Below, piece by piece: positions 15,451 through 34,683 of a stretch of DNA of 64,000 nt. The DNA lies in the NCBI GenBank assembly GCA_965249725.1, contig CBDFMQ010000002.1, positions 2,208,001 to 2,272,000 on the forward strand, read 5' to 3'. The stretch's first letter is position 1; the number at the start of each line of letters is the position of its first letter. Source of the stretch: Longimicrobiales bacterium. GTDB lineage: Bacteria; Gemmatimonadota; Gemmatimonadetes; Longimicrobiales; Gaopeijiaceae. Below the pieces are notes generated by a model, which saw only the letters and a program-made list of their open reading frames with translations, had not been told where the DNA came from and did no database searches. Both the position numbers and the translations under genes were made by a program.

Positions 15451-16071
15451 ATGGGCAAGCAACCCCTCGCACTGCTCCTCGTGCTGGCCGGCGCTGCCGT
15501 ATCGGCAGCGTGTGACGCCATGCCACGGGAGCGGGTCATGATGGGACCACACGACGGACTCGATCTTCCGGCCGTGGATACGGGACGCGTGGCAGTCGGA
15601 GACGTGGCTCCGAACTTCTCGGCTGTGACCTACGACGGGCCGGTCGTCACCCTCTCGGACTATCGAGCCGACAAGAACGTCGTTCTCGTCTTCTACCGCG
15701 GCCACTGGTGACCATGGTGCGCCGGTCAGCTCGGGAAGCTGAGAGAACTGCTAACGCCGGAACAGTTGGACGGCACCGAGATTCTCGCTGTCTCCGTGGA
15801 TGACCACGAGAAGCAGCAGATGATGATCGACCGTGTCGCGAAAGACGACGGCATACTCATCGAGTTTCAACTGCTCTCGGATCCGGAGCACCGCATCATC
15901 GACCGGTACGGGTTGTTCAATCCCGACGAAGCGAAGATGAGGCCGGTGCCCCACCCCACTGTGTTTGTCCTCGACCGTGAGGGCGTCGTGCAGTGGAAGT
16001 CCATTGAGATCGACTACCGTGTACGCCCCACCAACGAGGACATCCTCGGCGCGTTGTCGGCTCTGGACTGA
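15451..16071 (+). CDS. AhpC/TSA peroxiredoxin-like lipoprotein, candidate selenoprotein (UxxC; Sec codon 15709-15711)
   Basis: Two in-frame ORFs joined by TGA give VLVFYRGHW-U-PWC...ILAVSVD...LLSDP...PTVFVLDREG. Confidence 0.9.
15726..15742 (+). promoter_or_regulatory. Candidate bacterial SECIS hairpin
   Basis: TCAGCT-CGGGA-AGCTGA, 14 nt after the in-frame TGA. Confidence 0.65.
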
Positions 16072-21056: not shown

Positions 21057-21848
21057 CTACGCTTGCTCCGCCTTCTCGGCCGTCATCAGGACGGCCTTCA
21101 CTCCGTAGGCTTCGGCGGAGTTCTGTGTCGATTGCTTCCGGAACCGGAAGCGGGGAACCACCGCCGACTTTACGCGGCTGAACCCGGACTCTTCCAAGAG
21201 CCTGAACATCTCTCCTTCCAGGAGAGCGCCTCCGATTCAGGCAGCCCAGAGTTTGGGGTCGTTGACGATGTCCTGTGAGAGCTGTTTACCGCTGACGATG
21301 TCCGTTATGGAGATGCGCCCTCCGGGTCGCAGAACCCGGAACATCTCCTCCATCACCCGGCGCTTTCGAAACGACAAGTTGATGACCCCGTTGGAGATGA
21401 CCACGTCCACCGAGGCTTCGGGCAGTGGGATTTCCTCCATCCGACCTTCGTGGCACTCCATCTCCGAACCGGTGGCCGCGACATGAGCCTCGGCCTTCCG
21501 GCACATGGAGGGATTGAGATCGATACCGATCACCTTGCCCGTGGGCCCGACGCCCCAGGACGAGATGATGGAGTCGAGTCCGGCGCCGCTCCCCAGGTCC
21601 AGGACTGTCTCGCCTGGCTGGAGGTTGCTGCGAAGATGTGGGTTGCCGACTCCGGCGAAGGAGTCGACGGCTCCGGGGGGAGCCTGGTCGAGCCAGGCAG
21701 CGGGGTAGTCGAAGAGCTCGGCCGCTTGCCGGCCGTGAAAGAAATGGAACTCGCCTTCCGGATTGTCCGCCACATCCTGGTACATGCGGACGATCTCGTC
21801 CTTCAGGAATCCCTCGAGTGAGGCTTGGGCTTCGGCAGCGTCTGACAT
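21057..21848 (-). CDS. ArsM-like SAM-dependent methyltransferase, candidate selenoprotein (Sec codon 21237-21239)
   Basis: VLDLGSGAGLD, VLRPGGR; readthrough gives LWAA-U-IGGAL and 59 more codons to TAG at 21057-21059. Confidence 0.88.
21210..21226 (-). promoter_or_regulatory. Candidate bacterial SECIS hairpin
   Basis: CTCTCCT-GGA-AGGAGAG on the minus strand, 10 nt after the in-frame TGA. Confidence 0.7.
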
Positions 21849-22045
21849 GGCGGTCCCTACAGGTCTAGAGCGGGCAATGGTGCACGCCACCCTACAATTC
21901 GGCCTGCCCGGGAGCAAGCTGCCAGCGCACGGGCCCATCTGTGCTCGCGGCGCCCACTGCGTCGATGCACTGGCGCTTGGAGTATCAGACGGCCGATCTT
22001 CTCCGCAGTCCCCGTGAGTAGGCACTCGACTTCACAGACAGTGAC

Positions 22046-23269
22046 ATGGCACGAGATCAGGACAAGCGACTAGCGGACAAGCGACTAGCGGACAAGCGAC
22101 TGGCGGACAAGCGACTGGCGGACAAGCGAAACGACGAGCAAGCGGACGCGACCGTACTGGCGCAGGCCGGCCATTCGTTCGATGAAGCGACGGGTGCGCT
22201 GGTCCCGCCGCTCTACATGTCGACCACGTTCGGTCGCGATTCCGACAACGAGCTGATCGGAGATTACCTCTACTCACGCTACCAGAATCCTACCGTGGAG
22301 CATGCGGAGGGGCTTCTGGCCGGGCTCGACGGGGGCGCGGACGCCATGCTGTTCGCTTCCGGACTGGCCGCGGTTGCCGCCGTTTTCGAGACCGTCGAGA
22401 GCGGAGGGCGTGTGGTCGCGCCCACCATCATGTATCACGGTGCCCAGGACTGGCTCTACCGGATCGAGAGTCGCCGGGGGATCGGCCTGACCCTGTTCGA
22501 CGCCACGGACCCCGACGCGCTCTCCCGGGCTCTGCAAGACGGCGAGACCTCGATCGTCTGGATCGAAACGCCCGTCAATCCGACGTGGGACGTCATCGAC
22601 ATCCGGGCCGCAGCGGATCTCGCGCACGCCGCGGGGGCGATCTTGGCCGTCGATAGCACCGTCGCGTCGCCCATTACGACACGAGCGCTCGAGCTCGGTG
22701 CCGATCTCGTGTTCCACTCGGCCACGAAATACATGAACGGGCATTCGGACATCTTGGCGGGAGTCCTCATCACGCCCGAGGTGAACGAACTGTGGGAAGA
22801 GCTCCAGCTGATCCGGAAACTCAGTGGTGGAGTGTTGGGCGCACACGACGCCTGGATGCTCATCCGCGGCCTACGTACGCTGCCCCTGCGCTTCGAGCGC
22901 GCCTCGACGAGCGCACTCGCGATCGCCCGTCATCTCGAGGGACACCCCAATCTGGAGGCCGTGCTCTACCCCGGGCTCGAGAGCCACCCCGGCCACGAAG
23001 TGGCCCGGCGCCAAATGACGAACGGATACGGCGCCCTCATGTCGATCCTGGTGAAGGGCGGCGCCGAAGAGGCCCTGGCCCTGACCGGCCGCCTGCGTGT
23101 CTTCCTGCGCGCGACTTCGCTCGGCGGCGTGGAGAGTCTCGTGGAGCATCGGGCCTCTGTGGAGGGTCCTCACAGTCAGGTGCCGCCCAACCTGGTACGG
23201 CTCTCGATCGGCATCGAGGACCCGGCAGACCTGATCGCGGACCTGGACCGGGCGTTGTCCGGGGACTAA
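22046..23269 (+). CDS. Cys/Met metabolism PLP-dependent enzyme (cystathionine gamma-synthase/lyase family)
   Basis: YSRYQNPT, FASGLAA, ETPVNP, HSATKYMNGHSD, ATSLGGVESL, RLSIGIE. Confidence 0.92.
   Translation: MARDQDKRLADKRLADKRLADKRLADKRNDEQADATVLAQAGHSFDEATGALVPPLYMSTTFGRDSDNELIGDYLYSRYQNPTVEHAEGLLAGLDGGADAMLFASGLAAVAAVFETVESGGRVVAPTIMYHGAQDWLYRIESRRGIGLTLFDATDPDALSRALQDGETSIVWIETPVNPTWDVIDIRAAADLAHAAGAILAVDSTVASPITTRALELGADLVFHSATKYMNGHSDILAGVLITPEVNELWEELQLIRKLSGGVLGAHDAWMLIRGLRTLPLRFERASTSALAIARHLEGHPNLEAVLYPGLESHPGHEVARRQMTNGYGALMSILVKGGAEEALALTGRLRVFLRATSLGGVESLVEHRASVEGPHSQVPPNLVRLSIGIEDPADLIADLDRALSGD
22061..22129 (+). repeat. 15-nt coding tandem repeat (GACAAGCGACTRGCG x4.6) encoding DKRLA
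   Basis: Units start at 22061, 22076, 22091 and 22106, with a partial unit at 22121. Confidence 0.95.
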
Positions 23270-29333: not shown

Positions 29334-29813
29334 TCAGCTAGTCCTGAGGGGGATCTGGACAACCTTGGGCGGATAACATACGGATGTGCGGTCGTTGCAG
29401 ATCTGATACCGGAGACTTGCTGATGTCTCCGACGTGCCCACCGGAGCGGGCACCAAACGAAATCGGAATTCGGTGCGACCCCGCAGGACCTGTGCCCGGA
29501 AGTCCTCGTCCCGCACGCCAGCCGGTCTGGACAGTTCTTCAATTCTGACCCCCGCCTCTTCGAGCGCAGGGAACGAAAAGGTGAACGGAATCAAGAACCC
29601 ATCGTCCCCCTTGTCGAGGTAGCCGTGATGATTCGGCGGGACCTCAACCCGGATGCTGAACGTGACCCCATCGGTGTCTGTCGAGAAGCTGCCGGGCACG
29701 ACCCCGGCAACGATGACGGGGACCTGGCCCCTGGCCCGCGACTGCGCGGCGACCGACCAAGGTACACCTACCAACAGCATGGATAGCTGAAGAATCGCTA
29801 ATCGTGCCGTCAT
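29334..29813 (-). CDS. Secreted DsbD N-terminal (alpha)-like domain protein
   Basis: Signal peptide; HHGY motif and C-terminal YQICNDRTSVCYPP Cys pair. Confidence 0.75.
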   Translation of the reverse strand: MTARLAILQLSMLLVGVPWSVAAQSRARGQVPVIVAGVVPGSFSTDTDGVTFSIRVEVPPNHHGYLDKGDDGFLIPFTFSFPALEEAGVRIEELSRPAGVRDEDFRAQVLRGRTEFRFRLVPAPVGTSETSASLRYQICNDRTSVCYPPKVVQIPLRTS

Positions 29814-29847
29814 GCCACGCACCTCCCTACCGATTGCGATGTCTCCG

Positions 29848-32800
29848 TCACCGGCTCCCCGCGATTCGATCCAAAAGGCCACGAATCTCGGAGATCGACG
29901 GGGGACCCCAACGGGCGAGTAGCACCTCGCCGTTCGCGTCCGTGACGATAGCGGCCGGCACTCCGTCCAGCCGGAGCTCGTCGAGCGCCGCATTCTTGAC
30001 GGCATTGATTTGGGTTGAACTGAGGTCCCGCAGGATCTCGTATGGCGGGTTGTTCATCTCCGCCCAGGCCTGGAAAGCGTCGGAAGTCTCCTCTTCGTCA
30101 TACGGAATGCCGTAGATCGCGAGGTCCTCGCTGCCGAACGTGGTCCGCAGCAGGTTGAGACTCGGGAGTTCCTCGAGACACGGGACGCACCACGTGGCCA
30201 TGGTCGTGTAGAGGATCAGTTGTCCAGGCGTTCCCCGGCGCGCATCCAGGATCCTTCCTGCGGGCGGGCGGACGTCCCGGGCCGAGCGGCGCCGGGGCAT
30301 CTGAGTTGAGGGATGATAGGGAGTCAGCACGAACGGTGCACCGGTGGGGGAGAGGGCCGGGTCCTCGTACGCGGTGACAAGGGTTCCGACGGGAACGGCG
30401 GTCGTGTCCCACGTCTCCCCGGAGGGCCATCGGACTCCAGGTGGTCCGCACGGTCTGACTCACCGATCCCTATGCGCATCGTGGGGGAGTTCTGGGCCGC
30501 AAGGCCTTCGCCGGCCCGGTGCTCCCGAAGCAGGGTGCGGCCGCCCAACTCGACGAGAACGCGGGCTCCGTATCCATCGCGAGCACTCCACTGGTCGTTG
30601 GAGCTGGCGACGCGATTGCCACCTTCGAAGCGCAAGGCCACGATTCCGGCACGATCACCTTCACCGTCTCCGATCTGGTTCCGGTAGAGCTGGAGTAGGG
30701 GGGCGTTGGCGTTCACTACCGCCAGGTCCTGCCAACCGTCGCGGTCGAAGTCGAGGACCGCGAACGCTCGGCCGTCCGCCGGATGATCCAGGCCGGAAAC
30801 CCCGGACACGTCGACGTAATCCTCGCCCCCTTGATTCAGAAATACGTGATTGCGTTCGTGTCCGCTGAAGGAGGCACCGCTGGCAAGTCGGTCGATCCCC
30901 CGCGCACCCACAAGGAACAGTTGCGGTGATTCCTCACCGTCCGTGCGTGCAACTGCACGCCAGAAATCTGTTCATATGTCAATCGGAAGCTCAACGGCCG
31001 ACGGGGCGGTGTAATAGCCGCTGAGCGCGTACAGGTCCAGATCAGTGTCATTGTCCAGATCGACGAACTGGCTTCCCCACCCCCATCCGGCCGCCTCGAC
31101 CAGCAGTCCAGGTCGCTCGAGGCTGGAGACCCGTTCGAACCTGCCGGGTGTGTTCCGGAACAGGGTGTTTCCGCGAGCCATGGAGGCCAACCTGGGATCC
31201 AGTTCGCCTAGTTGTTCCGTTATGCGAAGTCCTGCCTTGCTGTACATGTTCGTGACATAGAGGTCCTGGCGCCCGTCCCCGTCGAAATCTCCCCAGGATG
31301 CTCCCATGCCGAACCCGATATCGGAGGTTCCGGTAGCCTCGGTTATGTCGGTAAAGCGACCATGGCTCTCGTTGCGAAACAAGTTGTTAGGCGCCCAGTC
31401 ATTGACGACGTACACGTCCATATCGCCGTCGTCGTCGTAGTCGGCCCAGGTTGCCTGGTAGGAATTCTTGAACAGCCGTAACTCACCGACTTCTGCCGGT
31501 GCGAATCGGCCGCCGCCTAGATTCCTCAGCACGACGTTCGGTGGGCCAAAACGGTTCAGGACGACGTGGTGCTCTGAAGTTTCACGCAAGCGGATCAACT
31601 CTTCCGCATCACCAGACGGGAGATAGGAGGCCCATTTCCGGCTGGGCTCGTCAGTCGTGAGGCCCGCCGCATAGGTGGACACGTACAGGTCCAAGAGCCC
31701 GTCGTTATCATAATCCACGGCGGAAACTGCTGATGCAAATGCTGGCAGTGGTCCGTCGACCAGCTCATCGGACCGGTCGACGAACCGGCCCCGCTCGTTC
31801 ACCAGGTAGACGCTGGGGCGTAAGGTTCGTCCCAGGAACGCATCGACATCACCGTCATTGTCGAAATCGGCAAAAAGCGCTGAGGACGTGTGATCGGCGA
31901 TATCGAGGCCAACGGTCTCCGAGATCTCCTCGAATGTTCCATCTCCGTTGTTCTGGAAGAAGAGGTTGCGGCCCCAACGAGCCATGACGTAGATATCGTC
32001 GAATCCGTCTTGGTTGAGGTCCGTCACCGCGATTCCGGGATGACGATCGAAGGCTGGAATTTGGAAGAAGGGATGAGGCGGAGCGAAGCCCTCCACGCGC
32101 AAGAGCATGTTGAGTACGTGCTCTTCGTGGATCGAGCGTCGCGCACGGACGAGGGCCTTCGGAGCCAATACCTGATCGAGAACATCAGAAAAGAGCGGTC
32201 GACGCACCGACATGGTTTCTAGTCCCTCATTGTGCCAACCCACGATCTTCCAAGTCGGATCCGCTCCTTCTTCCAACGCCGGCTCCGGAGTCCAGGTGAC
32301 CTTCTGATGGCCGCGGATCCAGGACCGGCCGCCCCCCATACGTGCCAGCGCCTCGAAACCGATGTCCGTCTCCAGGAGCCCCGATCCATCGTCCAGCAGG
32401 GCGCCTCGAATCACATAGAACTTTGCGTGCTCAAAAAAGACGACGACGTCCAAGAGTGGCCGCCAAAGGGCGACGTCCTGACGAGCCACCGGTCCGGGAG
32501 ATCGAGGGTTGGCGCGGAATCCCGCCTCGACCGCGCCGAACCGGAGGTCCTGGGGGCTCCCGACGACGCGGATGTCGCGAACGGTGACCGAGTCACCAAA
32601 AGACTGACGGGCAGATGGATCTGGAAGCTGGAGATTCAAGACCGAGTGGGATAGGCGTCTTAGCTCCGGCCCCAACGCCACGATCGCTTCCTCCGCAGCT
32701 TCCATCTCAGTCCAAGAGGCACTGGGGACTGCCAGGAGGCTTCCCCAAGCACCCCATACCACGACGAAGCCCACCGCGATCGATGCGGTGGCCTGGATGG

Positions 32801-33041
32801 TGGAACCCGACCGGCGGGTGCTTCGCGTGGCGATGACCCAGAGGCCGGTAACGACGCACACCACCTGGAACGCCACGATCGCGGTCAAAAAGAGGATCGA
32901 GTCGACGCTCTGATCGCGGGCCAGAAGGCGCCCGACAGACCACTTGTTTACGGCCACCGCAGCTAGGACAAGAAGGACGCCGAGGCGGAGTGTCCAAAAA
33001 TGGTGACCCTGCGGGACCTCGTTTGCCGGTTCGCTCTTCAT
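29848..33041 (-). CDS. Membrane-anchored FG-GAP repeat + ASPIC/UnbV + TlpA-like thioredoxin fusion; candidate selenoprotein (TGA 30972-30974) with a 1-nt frameshift near 30434
   Basis: DxDxDG repeats; the TGA is in frame with the next ORF (PIDI-U-TDFWRAVA...SFSGHERN); ASPIC motif GARV...AQNS...GIG; adding one G restores LEVRWPSG and runs into ATWCVPC. Confidence 0.75.
30945..30960 (-). promoter_or_regulatory. Candidate bacterial SECIS hairpin
   Basis: GCGTGC-AGTT-GCACGC on the minus strand, 11 nt after the in-frame TGA. Confidence 0.65.
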
Positions 33042-33174
33042 CTGTTCAGCTTACGGGTTGGTCTACCCGGAGAGAAGTCGAATCAACTGCCTTCCCTGGC
33101 AAAGATCTGTCGGCGTCGCTCTGGCGCAAGGTCCGCGCCTGGTAGCCGGTTACAGCGCGAGCAGGGGAACGCCC

Positions 33175-33261
33175 CTGGACAGGTATATCGGACTGGACGT
33201 GCGTGCGTCAAGCTGCACGCTGGCGGTGGTAGGGCCGAGCGGCAAACGTCTGGGCACGCAC
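33175..33261 (+). mobile_element. IS110-family transposase N-terminal remnant
   Basis: (L)DRYIGLDVRASSCTLAVVGPSGKRLG, the first strand of the DEDD RuvC-like domain; CTG at the start position after a purine-rich RBS. Confidence 0.7.
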
Positions 33262-33618
33262 GGGTTACAGGGGAAAGCATCCATTGAAATGCTGGGCTGG
33301 GCGGTGTGGCCCGAGTCCCCAGGGATAGGCTATGCGCCCCTGGAGAGCCGAACGAAGCGATGGGCCACAGAGCCCCAGATAGAAGGATGGTTCCCGCTCC
33401 CGAGCGGAGAACGCCACGGCTGTGAAGGACTTTCGGACTGCGATGCGGAGCCGACCAGCGCACCCACCCCCGAGTCGTCGAACACTGGCAATTCAAAGCA
33501 AGCGGACGCCTGCGGCAAAAAGATGGACCGACGGCGTGTGGTGGGCGTGTGTATTGACCTCTGGCCCCGTGATGTCGGTCAGGGGGGGCCACACTTCACG
33601 GGAGGTCGCCCCTCTCCC

Positions 33619-34515
33619 TCACCCGTCACGCTCCGACAGGCGAGGAGCCCACTCGCCGGCCTTGAATGTCTCATGAACACTATTCCAATATTGGTCAATA
33701 TCAACATGTTTCCTTCCTGTTAGTATTAATTGCAGCCTCACATCTTTCTTGAAAATCAAAAATTCCCTGGTCACATCACATGATCGTGTCCAGTATCTTA
33801 TGATCTTTTTCGCAAATTCCCGCACCAACCTGACACGTGACGTTGTCTTAGCCCGATTCATCGTCCAATGATCCAACAATTCCAGTTTTAGTGAACGCAT
33901 TGTAGTAGAAAGTCCCTTTCTATTAAAAAATGCACATGAAGTTGGCTCATACGGGCTCTCTTCAACCGGGCAGTATAGAAAGTCCTTATTCTTGTAGGTT
34001 GGACCTACAAGCATTCCGCTTTCAATCAACAGAATACCCTTGTCGGATAAACAATCGGTCACCTTCTTCAATCCCCAGAAAGGATATCTAAGATGATATA
34101 ATACACCGAAACACAAGATTACGTCGAATAGTCCAAATTTGTCAGGAGTTAAGTCATATAGATTCAACTCATGCATTTGTACTTTAGATCCGAATAATGG
34201 AATCAAGAATTCGTCGGCTCCTTTAGATATATCATTATCAAGCCCAATGACTTCCGTCGCGCCTCTCCTTTCAGCCTCAAATGAAAAAAGACCATCACGA
34301 CACCCTATGTCGAGCACTTTCTTGTCTTGAAAATCTATGTTGTCCATAGATTTCAGGATAAAATCCCACATAACCTTAAATTGTGGAACACCAGATTTGG
34401 TGTATACACCATCCGCTACTTGTATGGTGTGATACCACGTATATTTGTCAGTGATACCTTGCAATGTTTCCGCTTGTTTGAGTGTGTCGCTATCTATGTC
34501 GTTGTCTTCTACCAC
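33619..34515 (-). CDS. Class I SAM-dependent methyltransferase (CmoB/DUF1698-like), AT-rich
   Basis: AAGGAGG RBS; WYHTI, VLDIGCRDGLFSF, FDVILCFGVLYHLRYP; visibly lower GC than the flanks. Confidence 0.85.
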   Translation of the reverse strand: MVEDNDIDSDTLKQAETLQGITDKYTWYHTIQVADGVYTKSGVPQFKVMWDFILKSMDNIDFQDKKVLDIGCRDGLFSFEAERRGATEVIGLDNDISKGADEFLIPLFGSKVQMHELNLYDLTPDKFGLFDVILCFGVLYHLRYPFWGLKKVTDCLSDKGILLIESGMLVGPTYKNKDFLYCPVEESPYEPTSCAFFNRKGLSTTMRSLKLELLDHWTMNRAKTTSRVRLVREFAKKIIRYWTRSCDVTREFLIFKKDVRLQLILTGRKHVDIDQYWNSVHETFKAGEWAPRLSERDG

Positions 34516-34683
34516 GACAATGCCTCCTTCATGCGTTGCGGGGGGTATCATGGGTGCGCTCACGCGGAACAACATCGCGTCGGACACCATGAACGTGCCG
34601 GCAAATCAATGAACGCTAGTACGGAACACCCCTCGACCCCAACATAGACACGCCAACGACGCCCGAGTAACACCACGGTAACG

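Follow-up and report, generated by a model that had tools for sequence, protein, structure and literature searches.

An in-frame TGA very probably read as selenocysteine in a CRTAC1-type propeller gene of a Longimicrobiales bacterium, with a fused TlpA-like domain and a DsbD-alpha-like partner

A 64,000-nucleotide stretch of DNA from a Longimicrobiales bacterium (GenBank assembly GCA_965249725.1, contig CBDFMQ010000002.1, positions 2,208,001 to 2,272,000; hereafter the window) carries on its minus strand, between 29334 and 33041, a gene for an FG-GAP beta-propeller and ASPIC/UnbV protein with an in-frame TGA, followed by a gene for a DsbD-alpha-like protein. A sequence-only reading of this region had proposed that the TGA encodes selenocysteine (Sec) and that the product works in a redox relay. 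We compared the gene with its homologs, and codon, machinery and hairpin comparisons together indicate that the TGA at 30972-30974 is very probably read as Sec in a SelB-dependent manner. The whole account, in which an anchored extracytoplasmic selenoprotein would be recycled by TlpA and DsbD-alpha and the local copy would be impaired, has in our estimate a probability of about 0.55. Comparison backs the recoding signal, the architecture, the joint loss of Sec and the thioredoxin CxxC motif, and the coupling of the genes; the remaining mechanism we infer.

The 689-codon open reading frame (ORF) at 33041-30975 (minus strand) stops at this TGA, and the frame continues unbroken past it (...PIDI-stop-TDFWRAVAR...SFSGHERN), as the sequence-only reading had described. 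The post-TGA frame spans 215 codons and stops at 30324 (minus strand). A thioredoxin domain with the motif WCVPC lies in a different frame, open from about 30434 to 29848, and one extra base at about 30434 gives a continuous reading of 1064 codons. In Pfam searches over the window, FG-GAP matched before and after the TGA, the UnbV_ASPIC match broke off where the frame shifts, and AhpC-TSA/Redoxin was matched as well; the following gene matched DsbD_N. The proposal that three called ORFs form one gene was supported by independent tests. The gene is single-copy in the host genome (4.16 Mb, 3 contigs, 95.8% complete), and its close relatives are found in Longimicrobiales/Gemmatimonadota. No NCBIfam family covers the read-through protein, and a search of viral contigs for the gene gave no match.

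We tabulated the codon aligned with the TGA in 131 locus rows from four phyla, and the results showed TGA in 99 rows, Cys in 7 and TAA or TAG in none. A few genes entered these rows twice, about 1-3 matches were inspected per genome, and kin among the compared genomes are not independent. The first row set comprised 97 spanning rows (73 TGA, 6 TGC, 0 TAA/TAG), 85 of which carry the anchor Trp (66 TGA, 6 TGC, 4 GAG, 3 GAC, 2 GCG, 1 AAG and 3 gaps). The second set, an Acidobacteriota sample plus one Verrucomicrobiota genome, comprised 34 rows, with 26 TGA, 1 TGT and 0 TAA/TAG. The relative G011 has three tandem copies, all with TGA here and all readable without a break as far as WCVPC. As for independent translation of the downstream ORF, an in-frame start ahead of the conserved Trp was found in only 2 of 73 TGA rows; because the other 71 lack one, the conserved Trp motif requires readthrough. 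Among 59 spanning cluster representatives, the residue at the site was Ser in 13, Glu in 13, Asp in 8, Asn in 7, Ala in 5 and Cys in 5. The gene is carried by at least 43 of 201 Planctomycetota genomes and at least 23 of 151 Acidobacteriota genomes, often in several copies, and was matched in 1 of 301 genomes of the Verrucomicrobiota sample. The genome G882 was set aside as a counter-example, its TGA being the ordinary stop of a distant UnbV-class gene.

A hairpin (GCGTGC-AGTT-GCACGC) begins 11 nt past the TGA on the minus strand, as noted earlier. It folds at -15.0 kcal/mol (z -1.89 against synonymous recoding) and satisfies all four consensus limits drawn in Fig. 2A of PMC13188914 for the bacterial selenocysteine insertion sequence (bSECIS). 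When the loop had to fall at +15 to +22 and to have G among its first two bases, hairpins followed 67 of 71 TGA genes versus 3 of 15 sense genes, and 23 of 26 versus 2 of 8 in the second row set. The mean folding z against synonymous recoding was -1.30 for TGA genes and 0.01 for sense genes (p 5e-5), and loop positions G19 and T20 were each conserved in 63 of 64 rows. In five Planctomycetota loci (L109, L110, L113, L119 and L122), the downstream peptide has diverged and lacks the anchor Trp, but the TGA is kept, as is a hairpin whose GGTC loop lies at +22.

The machinery for Sec insertion was also assessed. The host genome contains selA, selB, selD (itself TGA-containing) and tRNA-Sec. SelA was present in 67 of 67 TGA genomes of the first sets and in 22 of 23 Acidobacteriota TGA genomes; the exception, G935, was rejected as a counter-example when it proved to be a Sec user with selB, tRNA-Sec and a TGA-containing selD, so that every tested TGA genome has Sec machinery. 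All 43 Planctomycetota TGA genomes have SelA (naive p 3e-7), a p value that is too strong because the SelA background is high. In three genomes, G359 and G496 (both TGC) and G953 (GCA), neither SelA nor selB, selC or selD was found over the cut-off, and these genomes without Sec machinery, with a Cys or Ala codon at the site, are more telling than the SelA co-occurrence count.

We then considered the predicted structure of the protein, using an AlphaFold2 model of an intact G011 copy with C in place of U and 115 alignment rows. The full-length model reached a predicted local distance difference test score (pLDDT) of 89.9 and a predicted template modelling score (pTM) of 0.90, and its propeller and ASPIC region matched murine CRTAC1 (PDB 9ETN; Z 40.2, root-mean-square deviation (rmsd) 2.3, 458 aligned). 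The fusion architecture proposed earlier was borne out in relatives, except that it had overlooked an NTF2/SnoaL-like domain of about 170 aa between anchor and propeller (pLDDT 90.4 in a model of this domain from the G011 homolog). The best matches of this domain were LinA and a scytalone-dehydratase-like protein (top VIA Z 12.2, rmsd 3.5-3.6, 134-140 aligned); all 50 structure rows among the matches listed were NTF2-like or similar, and Foldseek returned no match for the N-terminal domain at E <= 0.001. In the homolog model, Sec opens helix 628-637 in a loop after an FG-GAP strand, a stop at the TGA position would fall inside the propeller fold, and two further blades bear similar helical insertions. 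In the FG-GAP topology, such insertions would cap the top face, and the modelled Sec loop is probably an insertion on this ligand-binding face. An Arg-rich loop precedes the third hydrophobic segment of the anchor, and by the positive-inside rule the anchor would be oriented N-in, C-out. Leaving the anchor aside, the intact window protein has no Cys-like residues other than Sec and the CxxC. The thioredoxin domain is best called TlpA-like only: PF00578 exceeds its cut-off and WCxxC is present, and the NCBIfam TlpA and ResA equivalog matches fall below theirs.

The fused CxxC was found to follow the codon at the Sec site. Of the long genes, 48 of 52 with TGA and 0 of 5 with a sense codon have it; in the second row set it occurs in 23 of 23 TGA versus 0 of 4 sense genes, and it is present in 4 of 32 Glu/Asp-type proteins. 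These counts suggest that CxxC was lost together with Sec; the pattern is seen in three phyla, which are the sole basis for treating the losses as independent. Directly downstream, 13 of 16 Longimicrobiales-type genomes have a DsbD-alpha homolog, in most cases overlapping by 4 nt; of the other three, one has a partial DsbD-alpha, one is cut by the contig end and one is without. Conservation of this partner is confined to Longimicrobiales-type loci. In the window, the earlier call of a secreted DsbD-N-like protein with a C-x6-C pair held (PF11412 match, C139/C146), and the Cys pair is conserved among homologs. The host genome has three stand-alone DsbD_TM/CcdA matches elsewhere (ORFs of about 250 aa) and no second DsbD_N. 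A complex of the G011 TlpA domain with the window DsbD-alpha protein was modelled and scored 0.63 (best control 0.01), above a mark reached by 116 of 157 solved pairs and 2 of 215 mismatched pairs. Contacts agreed by at least 91% between runs, partner pLDDT was at least 85, and the first (attacking) TlpA Cys touched C146 of DsbD-alpha. In 12 of the 26 loci L049-L074, the gene is preceded by a susC/susD pair in the same orientation, 11 of these 12 loci being close kin and one standing at 32-38% identity.

Based on these observations, a mechanism can be drawn. SelB acting on the in-frame hairpin would insert Sec at the UGA, as comparative genomics suggests, to give an intact 1064-aa protein consisting of anchor, NTF2-like domain, CRTAC1-type FG-GAP propeller, ASPIC/UnbV and TlpA, presumably located in the envelope. 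The selenolate would attack a propeller-bound substrate, the CxxC of the fused TlpA would re-reduce the oxidised Sec, and the co-translated DsbD-alpha protein would in turn re-reduce TlpA. The electrons for DsbD-alpha could start from thioredoxin in the cytoplasm and pass a CcdA-type membrane protein and then a further thioredoxin in the periplasm. Since the gene follows susC/susD in many relatives, the substrate may be an imported molecule. The relay from DsbD-alpha through TlpA to Sec, taken as drawn, stands at even odds in our judgment; the co-loss of CxxC and Sec, the coupling of the genes and the passing complex model make it plausible, with the direction of flow and the TlpA-to-Sec step claimed earlier being tentative. 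The broader claim that the family is a redox enzyme goes further than the comparison at family level, since most sense homologs carry Ser, Glu, Asp, Asn or Ala and not Cys. Sec outside a thioredoxin fold, to which the sequence-only reading had pointed, is in itself no rarity, being shared with FdhA, SelD and ArsM, as listed in Table 1 of PMC13188914. A bolder version is speculative and rather unlikely: an envelope selenoenzyme class on a CRTAC1/integrin-like propeller, in which a helix-capping selenolate above the propeller face, beside the NTF2-like pocket, would react with a small molecule brought in by the adjacent SusC/SusD pair, for example by reductive dehalogenation or sulfur-bond cleavage. 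A private relay from DsbD-alpha to TlpA would then regenerate the selenolate.

Several observations weigh against the account as a whole. Most sense-codon homologs do not have Cys at the site (Cys in 5 of 59 representatives), and one protein search gave Cys in 0 of 87 site-spanning database proteins, although the doubt about Sec that this had raised was dropped once Cys/TGC homologs turned up. SelA is common in any case, exceeding the cut-off in 239/301, 146/201 and 120/151 of the genomes sampled. The hairpin covaries only weakly (1 pair, both sides changed in 4 cells), and its loop GT coincides with a Val codon. A fused TlpA is missing from 18 TGA genes and all 6 TGC genes, and no DsbD-alpha was found beside the 10 loci L066-L075 (one reaching a contig edge) or at L049. 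The modelled complex is a cross-species pair whose pass fits either electron direction, and it may echo the solved complexes of DsbD-alpha with thioredoxins, in which case it would show likeness only. The frame is shifted in 3 of 4 read sets of the species.

These points were weighed together with other explanations. That the TGA is a true stop in a split gene, or is read through without SelB as Trp, Cys or another residue, is very improbable. Databases do store the two halves of the gene as separate proteins, and Cys homologs are in the minority; but the complete lack of TAA/TAG in 131 rows, the lack of a start ahead of the conserved Trp in 71 of 73 rows and the position of the stop inside the propeller fold oppose this explanation, as do the occurrence of TGA only alongside Sec machinery and the specificity of the hairpin for TGA genes. 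With Sec inserted, its role may still differ. It could serve as a redox switch or as a metal or ligand residue on a Ca-binding adhesin-like or substrate-binding propeller, TlpA merely keeping it reduced; we consider this possible, though well short of probable. Ser, Glu, Asp, Asn and Ala are tolerated at the site in most sense homologs, the acidic and hydroxyl substitutes would suit a metal ligand or a helix cap, the nearest structure (CRTAC1) carries no enzyme label, and the susC/susD context would fit as well. The retention of Sec with a dedicated SECIS over four phyla, and the co-loss of CxxC in three lineages, instead suggest turnover.

The direction of electron flow allows another explanation, in which TlpA would be DsbD-gamma-like, electrons passing from CcdA to TlpA to DsbD-alpha and on to other envelope clients, with Sec served separately. 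In DsbD, the alpha domain is reduced by the thioredoxin-fold gamma domain, an order that favours this explanation; the three stand-alone DsbD_TM/CcdA matches alongside a single DsbD_N in the genome agree with it, and the modelled contact is compatible with both directions. It is nevertheless unlikely, as CxxC follows the Sec codon and not the DsbD-alpha gene, which is found in one lineage only. The selenoenzyme with TlpA/DsbD-alpha recycling remains the preferred reading.

The frameshift was examined in four read sets from four studies. X1 (1 of 4 runs of its sample) is identical to the window letter for letter at depth 13.8 and lacks the extra base; it may be the source reads of the window. 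X3, X4 and X11, from other studies, have the extra base after 30434, and X3 and X11 also lack 4 nt at 30260, so that their frame stops near 30218, ahead of the CxxC. The full fusion is encoded in 1 of 4 read sets (X4), and the species therefore has one intact allele and two different alleles that have lost TlpA independently. The earlier suggestion of a missing G near 30434 was right in that the base is present in three read sets; an assembly error as the cause of its absence is unsupported, given that the X1 reads, possibly the source, lack the base too. Translation of the window allele would end at residue 905, other sequence taking the place of the last ASPIC strands. We consider the missing base likely to be a real strain allele that would be decaying under relaxed selection, the local copy being probably impaired through loss of the TlpA tail by frameshift. 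Decay fits the IS110-like fragment upstream and the lost susC/susD context. At 33058-34590, the window holds a transposase fragment that we take to be IS110-like (it has no Pfam match), then a low-GC S-adenosylmethionine methyltransferase gene with a third-position GC content of 0.45, and the two suggest a recent insertion upstream of the gene. The coordinates of the features are given in Table 1.

Table 1. Features of the gene and its partner in the window
Feature	Position	Strand	Basis or remark
First 689 codons of the gene (5' part), a separate called ORF	30972..33041	-	ends at the Sec TGA; 30 database proteins (window's own included) end exactly there
N-terminal anchor, 3 hydrophobic segments: residues ~13-40 (weak), 49-67, 87-105	32727..33005	-	hydropathy 1.65, 2.52, 1.93
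NTF2/SnoaL-like domain, residues ~110-282, no Pfam match	32196..32714	-	homolog model; window bounds by alignment offset
FG-GAP beta-propeller, CRTAC1-like; Sec in a loop inserted ahead of the last blades	30675..32195	-	Pfam and structure comparison
In-frame TGA, predicted Sec690, first residue of a predicted helix	30972..30974	-	codon comparison, homolog model
SECIS-like hairpin of bacterial type with core stem at 30945-30960 and an AGTT loop at +18 to +21	30940..30964	-	sequence, folding, consensus limits
ASPIC/UnbV domain, broken by the frameshift in the window allele	30320..30647	-	profile positions 1-47 of 68 only; homolog model
One-base frameshift; base present in X3, X4, X11, missing in X1	30434..30435	.	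read sets
Short 4-nt tandem repeat; X3 and X11 lack 4 nt here (second frameshift, stop before CxxC)	30257..30272	.	read sets
TlpA/ResA-type thioredoxin, WCVPC, CxxC at 30178-30189; fused in relatives	29848..30230	-	Pfam, relatives
Secreted stand-alone DsbD-alpha-like protein, 159 aa, C139 and C146 (29376-29399)	29334..29813	-	genome's only PF11412 match

The surroundings of the gene in the window include an acyl-CoA ligase, a short-chain dehydrogenase/reductase (SDR) and a methyltransferase. No susC/susD pair lies beside it, and none of 27 related loci has the downstream ligase, the SDR or the upstream methyltransferase. Neither the window gene nor its relatives lie in an enediyne polyketide synthase cluster, the relatives' neighbours being susC/susD. 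In G011 (L029:5794-17211), three tandem Sec paralogs differ in their N-termini, one DsbD-alpha gene stands among them, and a Sec-less CRTAC1-family gene occupies the opposite strand. At G000:C1:708966-710813, a TGA-containing AhpC-TSA gene lies beside thioredoxin-like and CcdA/DsbD_TM genes and is a candidate electron entry point. Elsewhere in the window, an exported Prx-like/AhpC-TSA gene at 15451-16071 (plus strand) has a UxxC motif whose U (U87) is encoded by an in-frame TGA; selenoproteins of this type are known and are split by gene callers. An arsenite-methyltransferase-like gene at about 21058-22025 (minus strand), whose frame runs past TGA 21237-21239 in a UxxG motif, is probably a second selenoprotein of known type. 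A peptide tandem repeat of about 5 copies of a 5-residue unit (22046-22140, plus strand) starts a pyridoxal phosphate-dependent gene that is presumably cystathionine-lyase-like, and 20 tRNA genes, with a run of three Pro(CGG) calls, are densely clustered at G000:C3:1903222-1910701.

We compared the gene with known systems. The window gene shares with SelB/SECIS-dependent bacterial selenoproteins, so far as the sources consulted describe them, the conserved UGA, the bSECIS, the sel genes and the existence of Cys homologs; these homologs are rare here. Like CRTAC1, the protein has an FG-GAP propeller followed by ASPIC/UnbV; beyond CRTAC1, it adds the NTF2-like domain, the helical loop insertions with Sec, and TlpA, and the Sec loop has no sequence alignment to CRTAC1. 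The DsbD_N protein with its C-terminal Cys pair, the WCxxC thioredoxin and the modelled Cys-Cys contact resemble the relay between DsbD-alpha and TlpA-ResA-CcmG. Unlike the alpha domain of three-domain DsbD/ScsB, the window protein stands alone, secreted, at 159 aa with no fused beta or gamma domain, its Cys spacing is C-x6-C versus C-x5-C in E. coli, and the thioredoxin is fused to a Sec propeller, which is not so in the DsbD relay.

Sec candidates of this type have been known since a 2016 supplement. Kim et al. (PMC4807772, Table S9) listed, for two planctomycetes, four Sec candidates of the ASPIC/UnbV FG-GAP type and gave Gly as the homologous residue. Like the gene studied here, these are split ASPIC/UnbV and FG-GAP pairs joined at an in-frame UGA, with a SECIS called in 3 of 4; compared by description only, they likely have the identical Sec site. 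Unlike for the present loci, Table S9 names no TlpA or DsbD link. New in the present analysis are DsbD-alpha as a partner, the NTF2-like domain, the placement near susC/susD and the decay among alleles. ASPIC and UnbV do not occur in the main text of PMC4807772; the main text of the 2026 review PMC13188914 contains no ASPIC, UnbV, FG-GAP, CRTAC, VCBS or propeller; and the family is not named in the consulted text of the deep-Sep paper (PMC12013277). Our literature search found no paper joining ASPIC, UnbV and selenocysteine, no relevant paper on FG-GAP and SECIS, and no enediyne E4/UnbV paper, though absence from print is not fully established. Because Cys homologs are rare, screens for Cys/TGA pairs would fail on this family, a limitation stated in the text consulted of PMC12013277.

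These findings point to a large selenoprotein family that is unnamed in the main text of the 2026 catalogue and stored as two halves in databases. Its low Cys frequency means that whole families can escape Cys/TGA-pair screens. In the Longimicrobiales-type lineage, the stand-alone DsbD-alpha protein is a likely electron donor. Enediyne-cluster UnbV homologs are tied to halogen chemistry; if true, a catalytic site for the ASPIC/UnbV family would follow from the bolder selenoenzyme reading, together with a possible tie to that chemistry. By its Sec, a single residue on a bacterial CRTAC1-type propeller is marked out as the likely functional site, and the function of the family thereby becomes open to direct test.

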